Source: Escherichia coli (GTDB lineage Bacteria; Pseudomonadota; Gammaproteobacteria; Enterobacterales; Enterobacteriaceae). From it: a stretch of 64,000 nt of DNA. Numbering within the stretch: position 1 is the stretch's first letter; each line of letters starts with the position of its first letter. A program made the position numbers and the translations under genes. The DNA is taken from the NCBI RefSeq assembly GCF_041886205.1, contig NZ_CP169029.1, one strand, 5' to 3'. Under the pieces are notes generated by a model that saw only the letters and a list, made by a program, of their open reading frames with translations, made no database searches and had not been told where the DNA came from. Shown one piece after another: positions 2,148 to 62,732 of this stretch.

Positions 2148-3392
2148 CTATAGCTGTTTATTCCAGAGATGCTTGAAAATATCTAATGTTGAGACAACAT
2201 TGGCAGGCGACATTCGGTTTAATGAGGGTAGAAAGGGATGAGCCTCCAGGAAGTTGATAAAACGAGTCGCGCTTGCCAACGTCGAATTCCGCATTTCATT
2301 TGCTTTCTTGTTTCCTGTAAGGTTACAAACAGCCATTGAATAATCACGGGCGGAAAATGCACGCCAGACATTATTTCTCACGCCACCACTCAAAAATAAC
2401 CGCGGCGGCGTATCATAATGAGTCGTTTTCTCGCCGCGCTCTTTCACAAAGGAAATATGGCACCGGCCTTGATGAATATGCTGCAAATTAGCCATCAGAC
2501 AACCGCCTAATATAAAGCACTCGTTATCAAGGTAGTGTTGAATATTTATAGAATATCCTTCAGTCAGTACTCTAACCAGTTCAAAATGGCGATACGCCGG
2601 AAGAACCGGTTTCACCAGCATCCCCGGATCGTTTTGATGTAATATCGCCCGACCATAATCAATATCAAATAAGGTATCACGCCGCATAGTAAGTAACTCC
2701 TTGCGTTGTACGTGATGCGCCAGTGTACCTGGAGACAAACGCTCTTCATAACTTGATGCATACTGATAATGCGACTCTACCGCTGATGGAGAATAATTTG
2801 TTGAAATAGCGACAACTCTACCGCTTTGTTCTTCTGTGGTAACAAGACTATAAAGATAGTTATTACTACCGTTAAACTTTACGCGAAAAGCACGGGTAGC
2901 TAGAGAAATATCAGAAGCAGAAGAGTACTGGCGACTTTCTTTATAGTTTACTTCCCGGGCTAGTTTTATCAATTCACGGTTAAGCCCTGTGCTATTAAGA
3001 AGTAATAATTTACGGATATCAGCAAGTGAAGCACCTTGCTCAATCATCAATGCTAACTGTGTTCTTCGCGGCGTTGTATTTACATGATCCAGAGTGATAA
3101 ATGTTCTGGAACAATGATGACAATACATTCTCCTCTGCCCTTGAGCTGAATAACCATACTTTTTCAGAGATGTGCTTCCGCAAGCTGAACATTGTGGAAC
3201 CAACCCTCGCCATGAATGATTAACACGATTACGATAAATATTAAGAGATCGTTCAGATATCACAGGAAAAAAGTAACCGCATTCCCGACATAAAATATTT
3301 TTGCCTTGTGCAATATAATCCTGGCTATTCAACAATCCCAAGTTTTTGCATCCTGGTGTTTTGCAACAATCAACATTTACGTTGGTAAACAT
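2148..3392 (-). CDS. Cys-rich hypothetical protein with N-terminal zinc-ribbon motifs (C-x2-C...C-x2-C, InsA/IS1595-like) and a possible HTH; function unknown
   Basis: ORF track 2148..3428 (426 aa); internal ATG at 3392 (MFTNVNVDCCKTPGC...) has a GGGAG Shine-Dalgarno 5 nt upstream so is the preferred start; motifs CRECG and CSACG-x20-CHHCSRTF; AT-rich codon usage. Confidence 0.6.
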   Translation of the reverse strand: MFTNVNVDCCKTPGCKNLGLLNSQDYIAQGKNILCRECGYFFPVISERSLNIYRNRVNHSWRGLVPQCSACGSTSLKKYGYSAQGQRRMYCHHCSRTFITLDHVNTTPRRTQLALMIEQGASLADIRKLLLLNSTGLNRELIKLAREVNYKESRQYSSASDISLATRAFRVKFNGSNNYLYSLVTTEEQSGRVVAISTNYSPSAVESHYQYASSYEERLSPGTLAHHVQRKELLTMRRDTLFDIDYGRAILHQNDPGMLVKPVLPAYRHFELVRVLTEGYSINIQHYLDNECFILGGCLMANLQHIHQGRCHISFVKERGEKTTHYDTPPRLFLSGGVRNNVWRAFSARDYSMAVCNLTGNKKANEMRNSTLASATRFINFLEAHPFLPSLNRMSPANVVSTLDIFKHLWNKQL

Positions 3393-3429
3393 ATTCACTC
3401 CCTGCGAATATCCGGATATTATCGTCATA

Positions 3430-3473
3430 CGTCAAAGAAAAGAACCTGATTCAATGTGTAACATTGAATCAGG
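3430..3473 (-). terminator. Probable intrinsic terminator downstream of the sulfatase gene
   Basis: Perfect 12-bp inverted repeat cctgattcaatg/cattgaatcagg (3445-3473) with 5-nt loop, followed on the minus strand by TTCTTTTCTTT. Confidence 0.5.
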
Positions 3474-3521
3474 CGGGCATAGCCCTGAAAGGCATACATT
3501 ACATTTATTATGGTTATCAGA

Positions 3522-5015
3522 TTAGCCCCAGGTTACCGCTTCCGGTTTATCACCTCTGGCTTTCATTAATGAATCATTATCAATATCGGCTTTATATTTT
3601 AAGAACTTACCATACATTTGTTTTTCAATGTCTGGATTTTTACCTATCTGATTAATAGTCTCAAAACGATCGGTTTTGAGGTTATATAGGTACTTTGGCT
3701 TATTGTTACGATCGATGATCATTTTCCAGTCACCATCACGTATCGCCCATTCGTCGGTTGGATCATCCTGGAATGGCATGTCAATTCCGAAGATTAATGG
3801 CTTTTCACGTTTTAGCGCTTTGTTCTCAAGGACAGGAACCAACGATTCGCCATCAAAAGTGCGGTCCGTCGGTAATTTGAAGTTCATCATTTTCGCCAGC
3901 GTAGGCATCCAGTCCAGACCATAAACTGGCGTATCTGAAACCATTCCCTTTGGAAGATGTTTACCGTATTTAATAATTGCCGGAACACGGATGCCGCCTT
4001 CCCAAAGATTATCCTTGCGACCACGTAATCCATCAGTTTCACCTGCCAAATTCAGTTCATAAACTTTGCGTGCTTCACGCGTTACTGGGCCGTTGTCACT
4101 GGTAAAAATTATGATGGTGTTATCTTCTTCACCCATCGCTTTAATTTTATCCAGCACTTTTCCAACCTGAGCATCCAGATAACTGATGTTGGCATAATAT
4201 TCTCCTGTACCACGCCAGGGTTTATCCGCCCAGTCGCCATAAAATAAATCAGGATGCTGCTTCTGATATTCGCTCATATATTGTGAGTACATGTCGAGGT
4301 ATTTTTTGGGCGAAGCCAGGGGACTATGTACTTCGGTAAAAGCGACATAAAGGAAGAAAGGCTTACTGTCCTTTTTGTTATCCAACCAGTTAACAACTTC
4401 CGAACTGACATACTCACCACTCATTTTATCGGAACGTGGCGTTGGTTGCCCGTTACGCAACCAACCCGTTGGATAGACCATGCCAAAACGGGGACGCTCC
4501 TTCGCATTATCCAGAGTAGCGTCGGTAACAAAACCCGCCGTATTAACCAGTGAGTAATCAAAGCCCATATCTTTTGCCTGCGGCTGATCGGTGCGATCGC
4601 CGCCTGCATTCAGATGCAGCTTACCCATCATGGCCGTGTCGTACCCTTGCGCTTTGAGTAGATTAGCAATCGTGAGTTCATTACGCCCTAATGCCACATC
4701 TTTTCCCGTTGGGATCCATGAGCGTATGCCAGTACGAAATGGCATCCGCCCTGTTAATAGTCCCGCCCGTGAAGGAGAACTTAAGGGGGCAGGTGCATAG
4801 TAGTCGGTAAATTTGACGCCTTCCCGGGCAAGCCTGTCTATATTGGGCGTTTTAACGATCTGATGTCCATATGTTGCCAAATCACCATACCCTAAATCAT
4901 CCGCCATAATGATGACTAAATTGGGTTGTTTAGTCTCGGCGGCTACGGCTGGATTAAAAGCATTCCCTGTGCAAACTGCAAGGCCGATCAAACTGGCCAT
5001 TAATGTTTTCTGCAT
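3522..5015 (-). CDS. Secreted sulfatase (arylsulfatase family), Ser-type active-site motif
   Basis: ORF track 3522..5051; ATG at 5015 with AGGA 6 nt upstream gives MQKTLMASLIGLAVCTGNAFNPAVAAE signal peptide; N-terminal DDLGYGD metal-binding motif and SSPSRAGLLTGR formylglycine signature with Ser in the modified position. Confidence 0.85.
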   Translation of the reverse strand: MQKTLMASLIGLAVCTGNAFNPAVAAETKQPNLVIIMADDLGYGDLATYGHQIVKTPNIDRLAREGVKFTDYYAPAPLSSPSRAGLLTGRMPFRTGIRSWIPTGKDVALGRNELTIANLLKAQGYDTAMMGKLHLNAGGDRTDQPQAKDMGFDYSLVNTAGFVTDATLDNAKERPRFGMVYPTGWLRNGQPTPRSDKMSGEYVSSEVVNWLDNKKDSKPFFLYVAFTEVHSPLASPKKYLDMYSQYMSEYQKQHPDLFYGDWADKPWRGTGEYYANISYLDAQVGKVLDKIKAMGEEDNTIIIFTSDNGPVTREARKVYELNLAGETDGLRGRKDNLWEGGIRVPAIIKYGKHLPKGMVSDTPVYGLDWMPTLAKMMNFKLPTDRTFDGESLVPVLENKALKREKPLIFGIDMPFQDDPTDEWAIRDGDWKMIIDRNNKPKYLYNLKTDRFETINQIGKNPDIEKQMYGKFLKYKADIDNDSLMKARGDKPEAVTWG

Positions 5016-5034: not shown

Positions 5035-5796
5035 TTAGAAATCATAACCAAGCATATAAATCATTTGATCGCCAAAACCATCGTAGCCTAACTTATTATC
5101 GAAATAACGCCACGTCACACTGGCTTTCCAGCGAGGACAGAACTTCCAGGCAACTGTTAAACCGCCATTTAGCCCATTCCGACCAAATTGTTGTTCCGCA
5201 TAGGCATCATTTCTGTCCAGTTCTATTTCATTCCAGTTAGATAAAACAAATTTTTCGTCAAATAACGTAAAAGGTAATACTGCTGTCCAACCAACAACAT
5301 AACCATTCCAGCCATTTGTTTGACCATATTTGGCTGAGACATAGTCTCCAGATTGATTATGTAATCCTATATACGGTTTAAAAAATCCCCACGAACCATT
5401 CCAGCCGAGGTAGCCCAAGCCATAAAACATATCAAGATCGTCACCCCATGAGTTATCCCATTGACCATAGATCTTGCCAAAGAAAGTCATATCGGAGTCA
5501 AAAAGTCTGACATGTGTCATAGCAGAAACGGTATGATTACGCCCCGCTACGGCATGGTTAAGCACATTGCTTTCATAAAATGAGTAAAACTCGGCTTCTT
5601 TAAAATTCACACCAAAGTCCGCAGTCACTTTCCATACTTCACCACGGTGAGTGTTAACGAAGCCACTATTCCAGTCAGCATAACCTGCATTTATTGAGCC
5701 AAAGGAACCTTTATATTCTAATGAAGAATATGCAGGAAGATGATAGATAATCGTTGTCAGGGCACACGCAATAAGAAGCCGTCTTTTGGCAGACAT
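5035..5796 (-). CDS. Tsx/OmpK-family outer-membrane channel (nucleoside-channel-like beta-barrel)
   Basis: 253-aa ORF with signal peptide MSAKRRLLIACALTTIIYHLPAYS, aromatic-rich alternating beta-strand pattern, C-terminal ...MLGYDF resembling the Tsx C-terminus; GGAGA RBS upstream of ATG at 5796. Confidence 0.75.
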   Translation of the reverse strand: MSAKRRLLIACALTTIIYHLPAYSSLEYKGSFGSINAGYADWNSGFVNTHRGEVWKVTADFGVNFKEAEFYSFYESNVLNHAVAGRNHTVSAMTHVRLFDSDMTFFGKIYGQWDNSWGDDLDMFYGLGYLGWNGSWGFFKPYIGLHNQSGDYVSAKYGQTNGWNGYVVGWTAVLPFTLFDEKFVLSNWNEIELDRNDAYAEQQFGRNGLNGGLTVAWKFCPRWKASVTWRYFDNKLGYDGFGDQMIYMLGYDF

Positions 5797-6304
5797 ATAA
5801 TATGCTCTCCATTCATTGTTTTTATGTTTCCATAGTATTCAATACATCAGATAATTCATTTTGATTAAGAACGACCCAGAAAGTATATTTAAAGGTGAAT
5901 AGCAAAGCGTGATGAAGATCGCATATTACTTTTACACCAGGGTGTGGAGGTATCGTGTTTCAAAAAGTGTGTCTATTTTAAATATCACTCATTGATTTAT
6001 AGACATTTTTTCCTTATAAAAAACACTAAATTCTGTACAAGAATATTTTGTATCTTCTATTACTTTCTCCAGTAATAACTCACCATCCAGTCATAACTTA
6101 AATCTGCTTGTTCATAATCTTAATTTTTGTAAATGAAAAGGCACATAAGAGTTAAAATAAACAATGAACTAAAGATTAATTATGCAAAAATGCGAGGCGT
6201 CTTCAGGATTAGAATCGATAAAACAGAATGGGTTAAAAAGAGCGATATAATAGCGGCGGGTGCTTGAGGCTATCTGTCTCAGGCATTAGCTGAACGGCAG
6301 ATAG

Positions 6305-6359
6305 AGAAAAGCCCCGAGTGATATTTTACTATCAACCCGAGGCCCCCTATATGCTGAAC
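6305..6359 (-). ncRNA. sokC: sokC antisense RNA of the hokC/mokC type I toxin-antitoxin locus (approximate)
   Basis: Placed by position: antisense to the mokC translation-initiation region as in hok/sok loci; not independently delimited from sequence. Confidence 0.4.
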
Positions 6360-6560
6360 ACATGTAGAGTGCCTCTTACTGACCGTAAGGTCAAGGAGAA
6401 GAGAGCAATGAAGCAGCATAAGGCGATGATTGTCGCCCTGATCGTCATCTGTATCACCGCCGTAGTGGCGGCGCTGGTAACGAGAAAAGACCTCTGTGAG
6501 GTTCACATCCGAACTGGCCAGACGGAGGTTGCTGTTTTCACGGCTTACGAATCCGAGTAA
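6351..6560 (+). CDS. mokC: MokC, overlapping regulatory reading frame of hokC
   Basis: MLNTCRVPLTDRKVKEKRAMKQHKAM... within ORF 6318..6560; shares its stop with hokC. Confidence 0.85.
   Translation: MLNTCRVPLTDRKVKEKRAMKQHKAMIVALIVICITAVVAALVTRKDLCEVHIRTGQTEVAVFTAYESE
6408..6560 (+). CDS. hokC: HokC (Gef) small membrane toxin, type I TA
   Basis: 50-aa MKQHKAMIVALIVICITAVVAALVTRKDLCEVHIRTGQTEVAVFTAYESE. Confidence 0.92.
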   Translation: MKQHKAMIVALIVICITAVVAALVTRKDLCEVHIRTGQTEVAVFTAYESE

Positions 6561-57906: not shown

Positions 57907-58046
57907 GGTTTCATCTCTTTCATTGATAATGATAACCAATATCATATGATAATTTTTATCATTTGCAAGCCAGAGAAATCCCTTGCTATCGGATAAACCT
58001 ATCGCTAGGATTAGCAATCATTATCATTTAGATTACTATCCCGATT

Positions 58047-58835
58047 ATGGCCTATCGTTCCGCACCGCTCTATGAAGATGTTATCTGGCGAACGCATCTC
58101 CAGCCACAGGATGCTGGGCTTGCACAAGCCGTACGTGCGACGATCGCCAAACATCGTGAACATTTGCTCGAGTTTATCCGCCTGGATGAACCCGCTCCGC
58201 TTAACGCCATGACGCTGGCGCAATGGTCATCACCGAATGCGCTAAGTTCTCTACTCGCGGTCTATTCCGATCATATCTATCGCAACCAACCAACGATGAT
58301 CCGCGAGAACAAACCGCTGATCTCACTATGGGCACAATGGTATATCGGCCTGATGGTGCCACCATTAATGCTGGCGCTACTGACGCAGGAAAAGGCATTA
58401 GATGTGTCGCCGGAACATTTCCACGTTGAGTTTCACGAAACCGGCCGTGCCGCCTGTTTCTGGGTCGATGTGTGTGAAGATAAAAACGCAACACCACATT
58501 CGCCGCAGCAGCGAATGGAAACGTTAATCAGCCAGGCGCTGGTTCCGGTTGTGCAGGCACTAGAAGCGACCGGAGAGATCAACGGCAAACTTATCTGGAG
58601 TAATACCGGTTATTTGATCAACTGGTATCTCACTGAGATGAAGCAACTGCTCGGCGAGGCGACGGTTGAATCGCTGCGCCATGCCCTCTTTTTTGAGAAA
58701 ACGCTCACGAACGGTGAAGATAATCCACTCTGGCGTACCGTGGTACTGCGCGACGGCCTGCTGGTGCGCCGCACTTGCTGCCAGCGTTATCGCTTACCGG
58801 ATGTGCAGCAATGTGGCGATTGTACGCTGAAATGA
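58047..58835 (+). CDS. fhuF: Ferric-siderophore reductase FhuF (2Fe-2S)
   Basis: 262-aa MAYRSAPLYEDVIWRTHLQPQDAGLAQAVRATIAKHREHLLEFIRLDEPAPLN...; C-terminal CCQRYRLPDVQQCGDC cluster motif. Confidence 0.96.
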   Translation: MAYRSAPLYEDVIWRTHLQPQDAGLAQAVRATIAKHREHLLEFIRLDEPAPLNAMTLAQWSSPNALSSLLAVYSDHIYRNQPTMIRENKPLISLWAQWYIGLMVPPLMLALLTQEKALDVSPEHFHVEFHETGRAACFWVDVCEDKNATPHSPQQRMETLISQALVPVVQALEATGEINGKLIWSNTGYLINWYLTEMKQLLGEATVESLRHALFFEKTLTNGEDNPLWRTVVLRDGLLVRRTCCQRYRLPDVQQCGDCTLK

Positions 58836-58842
58836 AAGCACT

Positions 58843-58862
58843 GCCGGGGAAGTAAACCCGGC
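58843..58862. terminator. Hairpin between convergent fhuF and bglJ
   Basis: gccgggg-aagtaaa-cccggc stem-loop; no strong T-run, so terminator assignment is tentative. Confidence 0.35.
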
Positions 58863-58872
58863 ATAATGCGGA

Positions 58873-59550
58873 TTAATAGGGATGCAACACATTACTTGCT
58901 TCGCAATGCCGCATACATAACAGAATATCTGCGGCCTCCAACAACCCTGCATCAGAACTGACGCCCAGTTTCGACATCACATTAAATTTATGTGCACGGA
59001 TCGTTTTGATATTGCGTTTAAGCTGCTCGGCAATTTGTGTCATTGAGTAGCCACGCGACATAAAGCGCAATATTTCTCTCTCCGTCGGGCTTAACGTCCG
59101 GCTTTGGTTAATGTACCACTGATTGTTCAGTCGGTCGGTCGCCTGACGTACACCATTTAATGACAAAAAGAGTTCCTGATGAAAAATCTCCAGCGTTGAC
59201 GCTTTACTTAATACACCGTCCAGCGGTGATGGCGACAATGAACCAATCAGCCGAGCTTCAATATCATCATCCGCAATAACTAAACGCCGGGTACGCGGAA
59301 ACTTAATCGCCAGTTCAGTCAGGCAAGATAATCCCTCTCTGCGCTCACTTCTCATGGCAGAAAAAGAAAAAATGACCGCCGCAAATGAGATCCGCGACAT
59401 GGCATCCTGAAATGACTCCTGACTGGTATAGGTATGGAGCTTATAAGGGTTACCCGCAAACTTTCTGAATAAACTCTCAATACCGATACTGCTCATGACG
59501 CATTTTTCTATGAGTGCGACATTTCTCTTCTTAATTCGGCTGTGTTCCAT
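58873..59550 (-). CDS. bglJ: LuxR-family transcriptional activator BglJ
   Basis: 225-aa [63 protein letters not shown]...; C-terminal LuxR HTH. Confidence 0.93.
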
Positions 59551-60233
59551 TCTGCGGCATCTCCATAAACAGAAGGCAAGTTAAGTTCTCTTGCACCCTG
59601 CGCGCTATTTATCCATGCATACATTTCAGCGTTGCTGTGAATTGCCAGTCGACGCATCGCACTGTTTTTTTGGGCGCTGATAGTTTTATTACTTTTCTTA
59701 AGCAACGAAGCTATCTGGTTGATGCCCCATCCTTTACCTAATAGCCGCAGTACCTTGCGCTCTGAAAGAGTGAGAATGACGGAGCGATAGCTAAAATCAT
59801 GAGTTTCAGTCATTGCCGGAGAGGTCAGCATGGCGCTGATACGCTCTGCGTGCGTATTGCCGGAACGTACGGTCTTGACCAGATTCTCAATGGGTTCAAC
59901 ATCAGACAATAACGTCGCCGTAGGGCACATGAGCAATTCTACTGCCTGGGAATACCAGGAGCGTGACACCATGAAAACCCAGTGAATTTCCCGATATTGT
60001 GAAATTAAAGAATAATAATGCTCACAAACAGAACGTGGATCTTCACTTTCACCGGCTAAATCAGCAATGACTAATCCGGAACGACGTAATTGTAATAAGG
60101 TAAGGTCCTCCGCAGAGGCGCTGGATATTATTTCATATTCAGGGAAGTGAGTCCTCATGACCTCTTTTAACCCTGCTTGCATAACAGGTATTTTACTGAT
60201 AACAATTCCATTTTTGCAGCATCCTGGCAACAT
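59508..60233 (-). CDS. yjjQ: LuxR-family transcriptional regulator YjjQ
   Basis: 241-aa [69 protein letters not shown]...; overlaps bglJ start. Confidence 0.93.
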
Positions 60234-60851
60234 ATTTCCTCCACATCCACTGTCTAAAAATCATGATGGTTTATTCAGGATATTCATTCCTTAAATGTTT
60301 CCAGCAAATTAATAGATTAAGCGAATAAATTATCCTTAGCATTCACTTTCATATCAGCATACTCCTGCTGCACAACAACTCCACTGCATGTGTCAGAAGG
60401 TTAGCATCAAATGATAACCTGGTGAAATAGCCTGGAGACATTTAAAATATCTACATTAAGTTGTTAGGAATACTTAATGAAAAACAGAAATCACATTCAT
60501 TTAATTTATAATTAAATGATATCCCTTCCCGCAGAATGAAAAATCACACAACCAATATTTATTCAATGAAATCTGATGGTTTTAACTTGTTAACATTAAA
60601 AAACGTGCCCGGTTATCTATAATCCTGATTCGTAAAGGCCAAACAATAAATTCATTATAGTGATAATATTCATGTGATAGTTTGTTTGCGGCGAGAGATA
60701 ATTCGCTTTTTATCACCGAGCTTGTCCCGATAACCAGGATTAATCAGCGCAATTTTGATCTTAACCTACCGCAAAACAACCGTGCTTCATGATACAAATG
60801 GATTCTCATTATCTGAACAATACGCAGCACGTCTATGACAAAGGGCGAGTT
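60234..60851. promoter_or_regulatory. About 600-bp AT-rich divergent control region between yjjQ-bglJ and yjjP
   Basis: Markedly AT-rich, non-coding in all frames, with curved-DNA-like A/T tracts; typical of nucleoid-protein-silenced promoter regions. Confidence 0.5.
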
Positions 60852-62086
<1,235 letters not shown>

Positions 62087-62192
62087 AATTGCCTCGCTTA
62101 AGCACACGGATGAGAGACAGCCTCCTCTCCTCCGTGTGTTACTATAAAAGTTATCTCCCTTCTCGTTCATCGTTCCATATTTGAGAAACAGT

Positions 62193-62732
62193 ATGTCTTC
62201 CAGAGTTTTGACCCCGGACGTCGTTGGTATTGACGCCCTGGTACACGATCACCAAACCGTTCTGGCAAAAGCTGAAGGCGGTGTGGTTGCCGTATTTGCT
62301 AACAATGCCCCGGCGTTTTATGCCGTCACGCCTGCACGCCTGGCTGAACTGCTGGCGCTGGAAGAAAAGCTGGCGCGTCCGGGAAGCGATGTCGCTCTGG
62401 ACGATCAACTCTATCAGGAACCGCAAGCCGCTCCCGTTGCTGTACCCATGGGGAAATTCGCCATGTATCCGGACTGGCAACCCGATGCCGACTTTATCCG
62501 CCTGGCGGCGCTATGGGGCGTGGCACTAAGAGAGCCGGTGACCACCGAAGAACTGGCCTCATTCATTGCCTACTGGCAGGCGGAAGGTAAAGTCTTTCAC
62601 CATGTACAGTGGCAACAAAAACTGGCGCGCAGCCTGCAAATCGGTCGTGCCAGCAACGGCGGACTGCCGAAACGAGATGTGAATACGGTCAGCGAACCTG
62701 ACAGCCAAATTCCACCAGGATTCAGAGGGTAA
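62193..62732 (+). CDS. dnaT: Primosomal protein DnaT
   Basis: [81 protein letters not shown]...; track ORF begins 62181. Confidence 0.95.

Follow-up and report, generated by a model that had tools for sequence, protein, structure and literature searches.

Organisation of the AT-rich control region shared by yjjQ-bglJ and yjjP-yjjB in Escherichia coli: a composition-based spacer with a probable conserved promoter module on its yjjP side

Two regulator genes and a pair of membrane protein genes are read divergently from one long, AT-rich, non-coding region of the Escherichia coli chromosome, which raises the question of which parts of that region serve which side and how both can be kept silent. 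We analysed the region within a window of 64 kb, the whole stretch of DNA under study. A first-pass annotation had described two overlapping minus-strand genes of the LuxR family, bglJ and yjjQ, and a non-coding region of about 600 bp shared with the divergent yjjP. Coordinates and strand of both genes were right and both encode a PF00196 domain; the non-coding region measures 618 bp, with 34.3% GC compared with 51.2% for the window. The layout is as follows.

58873-59550, minus strand: bglJ (open reading frame, PF00196, NCBIfam BglJ equivalog, RefSeq annotation)
59508-60233, minus strand: yjjQ, first gene of the operon (open reading frame, PF00196, RefSeq annotation)
60234-60851, no strand: divergent control region of 618 bp, defined by composition and free of annotated features
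60852-61622, plus strand: yjjP, a ThrE-family membrane protein (PF06738, E 4e-69; annotation)
61613-62086, plus strand: yjjB, the ThrE_2 partner of yjjP (PF12821, E 6e-33; NCBIfam NF007391, 325 bits)

The 3' end of yjjQ lies on the start of bglJ, with an overlap of 43 bp, and the start of yjjB overlaps the stop of yjjP by 10 bp. The gene order is fhuF(+)-bglJ-yjjQ<>yjjP-yjjB-dnaT, and the interval 58047-62086 spans fhuF to yjjB. A 2.1-kb interval was 100% identical to the chromosome of E. coli strain 537-20 (NZ_CP091534.1), and of 5426 complete E. coli genomes 5424 contained a match to the locus with identical gene names; the layout recurs in K-12 MG1655 at 4602088-4604837. Pfam placed a GerE/LuxR helix-turn-helix (PF00196) in BglJ (E 1.3e-12) and in YjjQ (E 6.6e-8), and BglJ scored 383 bits against the NCBIfam equivalog cutoff of 176. 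YjjQ is annotated in K-12 as 'DNA-binding transcriptional repressor YjjQ', and YjjP and YjjB, a ThrE/ThrE_2 pair encoded by adjacent genes, as a putative succinate exporter. The chromosome match, the genome counts, the K-12 annotation and the protein families agree on the identity of the locus. We are highly confident that this interval is the E. coli yjjQ-bglJ operon together with the divergent control region that it shares with yjjP-yjjB, silenced by H-NS and activated by LeuO. Compared with the K-12 region, the locus, genes and order are the same, the spacer is 98.9% identical (to K-12-lineage genomes, e.g. AML003_ev02), and the differences are at strain level only; through one SNP, 60618-60623 reads as a perfect TATAAT here and as TATTAT in K-12.

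Neither YjjQ nor BglJ gave a Pfam Response_reg match at E ≤ 0.001, and models of the NarL/FimZ type produced only sub-threshold full-length alignments. The absence of a canonical receiver domain is consistent with the published phosphorylation-independent activity of BglJ-RcsB (PMC5025477), the heterodimer in which BglJ acts as an activator (PMC3950696). The GC content of yjjQ and bglJ is 45%, compared with 51-53% in neighbouring genes. The locus matters beyond its own borders, with BglJ-RcsB and YjjQ controlling bgl, leuO, flagella and capsule genes.

Control of yjjQ-bglJ by H-NS and LeuO is already known and has been on record since 2008 (Stratmann, Madhusudan and Schnetz, J Bacteriol 190:926). 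According to three later papers (PMC5025477, PMC3950696, PMC6698644) that cite this study, H-NS represses both yjjQ-bglJ and the divergent yjjP, and LeuO activates yjjQ-bglJ. The suggestion, made from the letters of the DNA, that the region is silenced by nucleoid proteins and activated only under special conditions thus matches published experiments. Strong constitutive transcription, which would be at odds with that suggestion, is answered in the negative: two of these papers (PMC5025477, PMC3950696) describe the operon as off under standard laboratory conditions. In the laboratory, even activation of the native operon by LeuO left BglJ too scarce for its targets to be switched on (PMC5025477), and genomic SELEX marked the spacer as an H-NS target (PMC3946193). 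The experiments of others show repression by H-NS, activation by LeuO, and binding of MarA, FNR, CsiR and sigma-70. As a case of antagonism between H-NS and LeuO, the spacer is a clear one.

What in the sequence could carry this silencing? The spacer is the second most AT-rich stretch of 618 bp in the 64 kb, and 0.6% of all windows of that length are as AT-rich. Its lowest 200-bp GC content, 27%, was found at 60401-60600, and TpA steps occur at a frequency of 0.084 compared with 0.045 in the window, which is about a twofold difference. Matches to the high-affinity H-NS motif (TCGATAAATT-like) numbered 2 at up to two mismatches in the spacer, compared with 1.9 in shuffled sequences. A check of AT content and curvature had been proposed beforehand; the AT-richness held and the curvature did not, A-tract phasing measured as AA/TT periodicity in the spacer being no higher than in shuffles (P 0.23). 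It is through AT and TpA content only that the sequence supports silencing. A reading of the region as a riboswitch or small RNA was dropped after an Rfam scan of 58000-62500 gave no match at E ≤ 1.

Conservation of the spacer was followed in other genomes. A genome scan with YjjQ yielded 80 loci across Enterobacteriaceae, of which 53, with yjjP and yjjQ adjacent, were usable; about 25 other loci carry 1.8-2.6 kb of additional DNA between the two genes. Cross-genus sharing of k-mers was too noisy in AT-rich DNA and anchored alignments were used instead. The arrangement yjjB-yjjP<>yjjQ-bglJ is kept across Enterobacteriaceae, and the 53 orthologous spacers are 387-709 bp long with a GC content of 32-44%, compared with 50-61% for yjjP. 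Proteins on the two sides differ in cross-genus identity, which is 82-91% for YjjP, about 80-90% for YjjB, 55-74% for YjjQ and 39-69% for BglJ. Within Escherichia, the 250 bp next to yjjQ and the 115 bp next to yjjP are conserved and the centre between them is hypervariable; 24 of the 38 variable columns among six E. coli strains fall within 60534-60683.

60484-60733, no strand: hypervariable, AT-rich centre of the spacer (alignments, composition)

Turnover of sequence with a kept composition agrees with an indirect read-out by H-NS. We presume that the centre is the zone in which H-NS nucleates, and the abstract by Stratmann and colleagues is said to place H-NS binding at the centre of the yjjQ-yjjP spacer.

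On the yjjQ side we located a ribosome binding site and a predicted promoter, and across the spacer several sites resembling the LeuO core.

60238-60242, minus strand: ribosome binding site of yjjQ, GGAGG (sequence; conserved across genera in the alignment)
60329-60357, minus strand: predicted sigma-70 promoter of yjjQ, CTGATA-17-GATAAT (promoter scan)
60280-60298, no strand: best LeuO-core-like site, ATATTCA-N5-TAAATGT, 12/14 (reconstructed motif)
60243, 60493, 60540, 60555 and 60802: further LeuO-core-like sites, each at least 10/14 (reconstructed motif)

The predicted yjjQ promoter is invariant in six E. coli strains, its -10 block AAGGATAAn is kept in Escherichia, Salmonella and Citrobacter in the alignment, and RpoD SELEX gave the same hexamers, CTGATA-17-GATAAT, for yjjQ-bglJ (PMC3946193). 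The LeuO site has been described as a 19-bp palindrome (7+5+7) that is nearly identical at cas and leuO (PMC6698644). Our search motif, ATATTCA-N5-TGAATAT, was reconstructed from two sites in the K-12 cas and leuO regions and differs in origin from the published matrix. With this reconstructed motif the spacer contains six sites of at least 10/14 compared with 1.36 expected, and 0 of 1000 shuffles reached six. These six make up 16% of all such matches in the window and are spread over both flanks and the centre, with one beside the putative yjjP core promoter. The spread agrees with what the abstract of the 2008 study reportedly describes. At the level of sequence, these matches support the presence of several candidate LeuO sites in the spacer.

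Other regulators have been mapped to the same spacer. In ETEC H10407, MarA ChIP-seq gave a peak at yjjP<>yjjQ, rated +++, with the MEME-predicted site gcatcaaatgataac, and a fragment carrying the site was bound by purified MarA (PMC5684230).

60404-60418, plus strand: MarA site GCATCAAATGATAAC, an exact match to the MEME-predicted ETEC site (PMC5684230)

The MarA site is invariant among six E. coli strains. For CsiR, a ChIP-seq peak at 4601377 in older K-12 coordinates corresponds to about 60356 in the window, and induction of CsiR raised yjjP expression 23-fold (PMC5217608).

A deeply conserved part of the spacer emerged from the anchored alignments on the yjjP side, where two elements stand at a nearly fixed distance.

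60755-60761, plus strand: TTGATCT box, the start of an FNR-like TTGAT-N4-ACCTA at 60755-60768 (alignments)
60790-60798, plus strand: extended -10-like element TGATACAAA, consensus TGnTAAAA (anchored alignments)

TTGATCT is invariant in all 54 spacers aligned in this way. The distance from the first T of TTGATC to TGnTAAAA is 38 nt in 46 spacers and 37 nt in seven, so that 53 of 54 have one of these two spacings. From this pattern we presume that TGATACAAA is the core promoter of yjjP. Compared with TTGAT-N4-ATCAA, the FNR-like site matches at 8 of 10 positions in the window and at 6-9 of 10 in the orthologues; its left half is invariant and its right half is weak, reading nCCAG in most genera. 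If yjjP transcription starts at about 60805, the centre of the site would be at about -43.5, compared with the canonical -41.5. The assignment of particular bases to the yjjP and yjjQ promoters is an inference, as is the reading of the TTGATCT box as the FNR site. Two other readings of the same letters were rejected: TTGATC as the -35 element of yjjP, since 32 bp separate it from the -10-like element and this is too far, and TTGCAC-N5-TTGATC as a sigma-54 promoter, which lacks the GG and GC dinucleotides.

The position of the module bears on the start of yjjP. An older start, ATG 60789, which would shorten the spacer to 555 bp, overlaps the extended -10-like element. ATG 60852 is the point from which other genera show homology to yjjP, and in one Escherichia species (L003) a frameshifting indel lies between the two ATG codons; both observations support the shorter yjjP of the current annotation, which starts at 60852.

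Published data place FNR and sigma-70 at the same spot (PMC3688515 supplements). FNR ChIP-seq peaks at 4600895 and 4600950 correspond to about 60838 and 60783 in the window, and the sigma-70 ChIP-seq peak at 4600950 (about 60783) rose from 163 in aerobic to 907 in anaerobic cells. Mutation of hns and stpA raised the FNR ChIP-chip signal from 0.32 to 0.66, and expression of yjjP and yjjB was about twofold higher without oxygen; an fnr-dependent change of yjjP expression was not seen in the wild type (Myers et al.; PMC3688515 supplements). The module of TTGATCT and -10-like element falls where that study has its FNR and anaerobic sigma-70 peaks (PMC3688515), and this conserved module probably underlies both signals. 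In the mouse gut, IS insertions in the spacer are recurrent adaptive mutations that raise yjjP expression about twofold (PMC5094792). One may tentatively go further and regard the module as an ancient, FNR-type anaerobic switch for the YjjPB succinate exporter that is largely masked by a fast-evolving, AT-rich H-NS silencer selected for its composition and not its sequence, and that is unmasked by IS insertions adaptive in the gut and by natural IS1 replacements; we consider this a serious possibility that falls somewhat short of being probable. The module could help to explain why IS insertions in the spacer are selected in the gut. Individually, the ChIP results come from published work; we have seen no earlier description of the exact site, of how deeply it is conserved or of the masking logic.

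We propose the following sequence of events. H-NS would polymerise along the AT-rich spacer, nucleating in its centre, and the resulting complex would keep the minus-strand yjjQ promoter or promoters and the plus-strand yjjP promoter nearly off in ordinary growth. LeuO, an H-NS antagonist of the LysR type that is itself silenced by H-NS, would occupy several sites in the spacer and restructure the H-NS complex, switching on yjjQ-bglJ. Among the loci that BglJ, paired with RcsB, would then activate are bgl and leuO; YjjQ would repress flhDC and others. On the opposite side, yjjP would have its own conserved module, which FNR and sigma-70 would occupy preferentially without oxygen, with an output limited by H-NS. 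IS insertions or deletions that disrupt the spacer would relieve silencing.

Alternatively, the spacer might contain a dedicated pair of operators. The first-pass annotation had pointed to partial inverted motifs in the spacer as possible regulator sites, and the strings are indeed where it put them, with GGTTATC starting at 60611, TAATCCTGATT at 60620, GATAACC at 60729 and AGGATTAATCAG at 60736; what did not hold up is their reading as regulator sites.

60611-60630, no strand: motif 1, GGTTATC-TA-TAATCCTGATT, variable between strains and judged to be chance
60729-60747, no strand: motif 2, GATAACC-AGGATTAATCAG, conserved within E. coli

As paired operators of one dedicated regulator, motifs 1 and 2 would loop the intervening 100 bp and control yjjP or yjjQ. 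Their arms of 10-11 nt are 90-91% complementary (I10, I17), a third copy of GATAACC, which the earlier list did not contain, lies inside the real MarA site at 60404-60418, and motif 2 is invariant in six E. coli strains. However, each half-element is inverted and their order is not mirrored; the motifs form no true inverted repeat and no dimeric protein would meet the same surface at both. Neither the number of 7-mers that recur in the spacer nor the length of its longest inverted repeat exceeds what dinucleotide shuffles give (P 0.07-0.33), which is the level of chance for this composition. The GGTTATC of motif 1 reads AGCTATC in four of six E. coli strains, its TAATCCT arm is present in this strain only, where it arises from the same SNP that creates the perfect TATAAT, and motif 1 is unrecognisable in alignments with other Escherichia species. 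There, motif 2 has lost its GATAACC, and among the 53 usable orthologous spacers a single one (L002) has a copy of GATAACC/GGTTATC. Of motif 2, only AGGATTAATCAG on the right falls within a conserved block, for which the deeply conserved yjjP promoter module next to it is the better explanation. The two motifs are also poor matches, by eye, to the listed MarA sites (PMC5684230), and a reading of them as marboxes was rejected. We treat the motif pair as chance and consider its role as operators exceedingly improbable, close to refuted.

The spacer could also be an unconstrained leftover from the horizontal acquisition of yjjQ-bglJ, with silencing as a passive by-product and no evolved architecture. 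The low GC content and faster divergence of yjjQ and bglJ compared with yjjP and yjjB would fit such a history, as would a fast-evolving centre that holds most of the polymorphism and levels of the H-NS motif and of curvature no higher than composition predicts. Yet, although its sequence turns over, the spacer has kept its length and low GC content in many genera, promoter and regulator elements in the flanks are conserved and hold a fixed spacing, LeuO-like sites outnumber those in shuffled sequences, and several regulators have been located here by ChIP. We regard a purely passive spacer as very unlikely, and we favour the H-NS-silenced, LeuO-activated control region described above.

Several known systems resemble this region. 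The bgl operon, which is activated by BglJ from this locus, is likewise cryptic in the laboratory, is an AT-rich target of H-NS, and is relieved by LeuO and by IS insertions. At bgl, according to PMC9678765, H-NS elements upstream and downstream loop around one promoter, whereas the yjjQ-yjjP spacer, considered alone, has one central AT-rich block between two divergent promoters. With leuO and cas (CRISPR-Cascade) the spacer shares silencing by H-NS, antagonism by LeuO and the LeuO core type ATATTCA-N5-TGAATAT; the sites at cas and leuO are near-perfect (14/14 and 13/14), whereas the best in the spacer reaches 12/14 and is accompanied by several weaker ones. The FNR sites masked by nucleoid-associated proteins that were described by Myers et al. 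(2013, PMC3688515) offer a further parallel, in that the FNR peak in the spacer about doubles in the hns stpA mutant and occupancy by sigma-70 is higher without oxygen. They differ from the spacer in that the candidate site here has a single perfect half-site and yjjP expression has no fnr-dependent change in the wild type.

The spacer is almost always intact in E. coli, being covered to at least 80% in 5410 of 5426 genomes. In strain 203740, an IS1 element abuts yjjP, having taken the place of the 5' part of yjjQ and of the whole spacer except 45 bp.

The AT-rich spacer between yjjQ-bglJ and the divergent yjjP is altered in one natural isolate. In E. coli 203740 (NZ_CP025913.1; locus L085), an IS1 element stands in place of the 5′ part of yjjQ and of the spacer except for 45 bp:

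Locus positions 3030-4045 (window equivalent about 60030-60806): IS1 replacement in L085

As nearly the whole spacer is replaced, IS1 lies directly upstream of yjjP in this strain. The replacement is a natural counterpart of the published IS insertions selected in this spacer in the mouse gut.

On its plus strand, the window strain itself has an exact TATAAT (60618-60623), 16 bp downstream of TTAAAA, and this TTAAAA-16-TATAAT arrangement was the top hit of the promoter scan (10/12). In the other E. coli strains sampled, namely K-12 and four more, the equivalent hexamer is TATTAT. TATAAT arises from a strain-specific SNP, which could create an extra promoter toward yjjP. The start codon of yjjP also bears on the extent of the spacer. 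With the older start, ATG 60789 (start region 60789-60854 in the window), the protein has 277 aa and the spacer 555 bp. This ATG falls within the conserved −10-like element, and in Escherichia sp. E1V33 it does not share the yjjP reading frame. Homology of yjjP begins at ATG 60852 in all genera.

Upstream of yjjQ, we observed a palindrome-like box, TTAG-N5-CTAA, of the T-N11-A shape (60462-60478), which is kept in Escherichia, Salmonella, Citrobacter, Enterobacter, and Leclercia. Comparison of this box with the LeuO core reconstructed from the K-12 cas and leuO regions gave no match. By coordinate conversion, a published CsiR ChIP-seq peak is placed at about 60356 in the window, and overproduction of CsiR induced yjjP 23-fold (PMC5217608).

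The gap between yjjP and yjjQ is enlarged by 1.8-2.6 kb of DNA with ordinary GC content in about 25 species, belonging to Klebsiella, Kluyvera, Raoultella, the Citrobacter amalonaticus group, and Pseudocitrobacter.

Scanned loci with extra yjjP-yjjQ DNA
L007-L010, L024, L025, L028-L031, L033, L039, and others

About 2.2 kb is also present between bglJ and fhuF in most genera other than Escherichia. In the window, bglJ and the Fur-regulated fhuF are convergent with a stop-to-stop gap of only 37 bp (58836-58872). A short GC hairpin, GCCGGG...CCCGGC, is present between the two stops (58843-58862), for which the terminator scan made no call. In ExPEC exposed to serum, bglJ alone was reported to be upregulated (PMC4145685), a rise that read-through out of induced fhuF might explain.

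Within the window, the spacer is exceeded in AT-richness by a single stretch, at about 5300-6500 (32% GC). This stretch corresponds to an accessory gene adjoining mokC that encodes an ompK-like outer-membrane protein; of 5426 E. coli genomes, 1269 carry the gene at full length.
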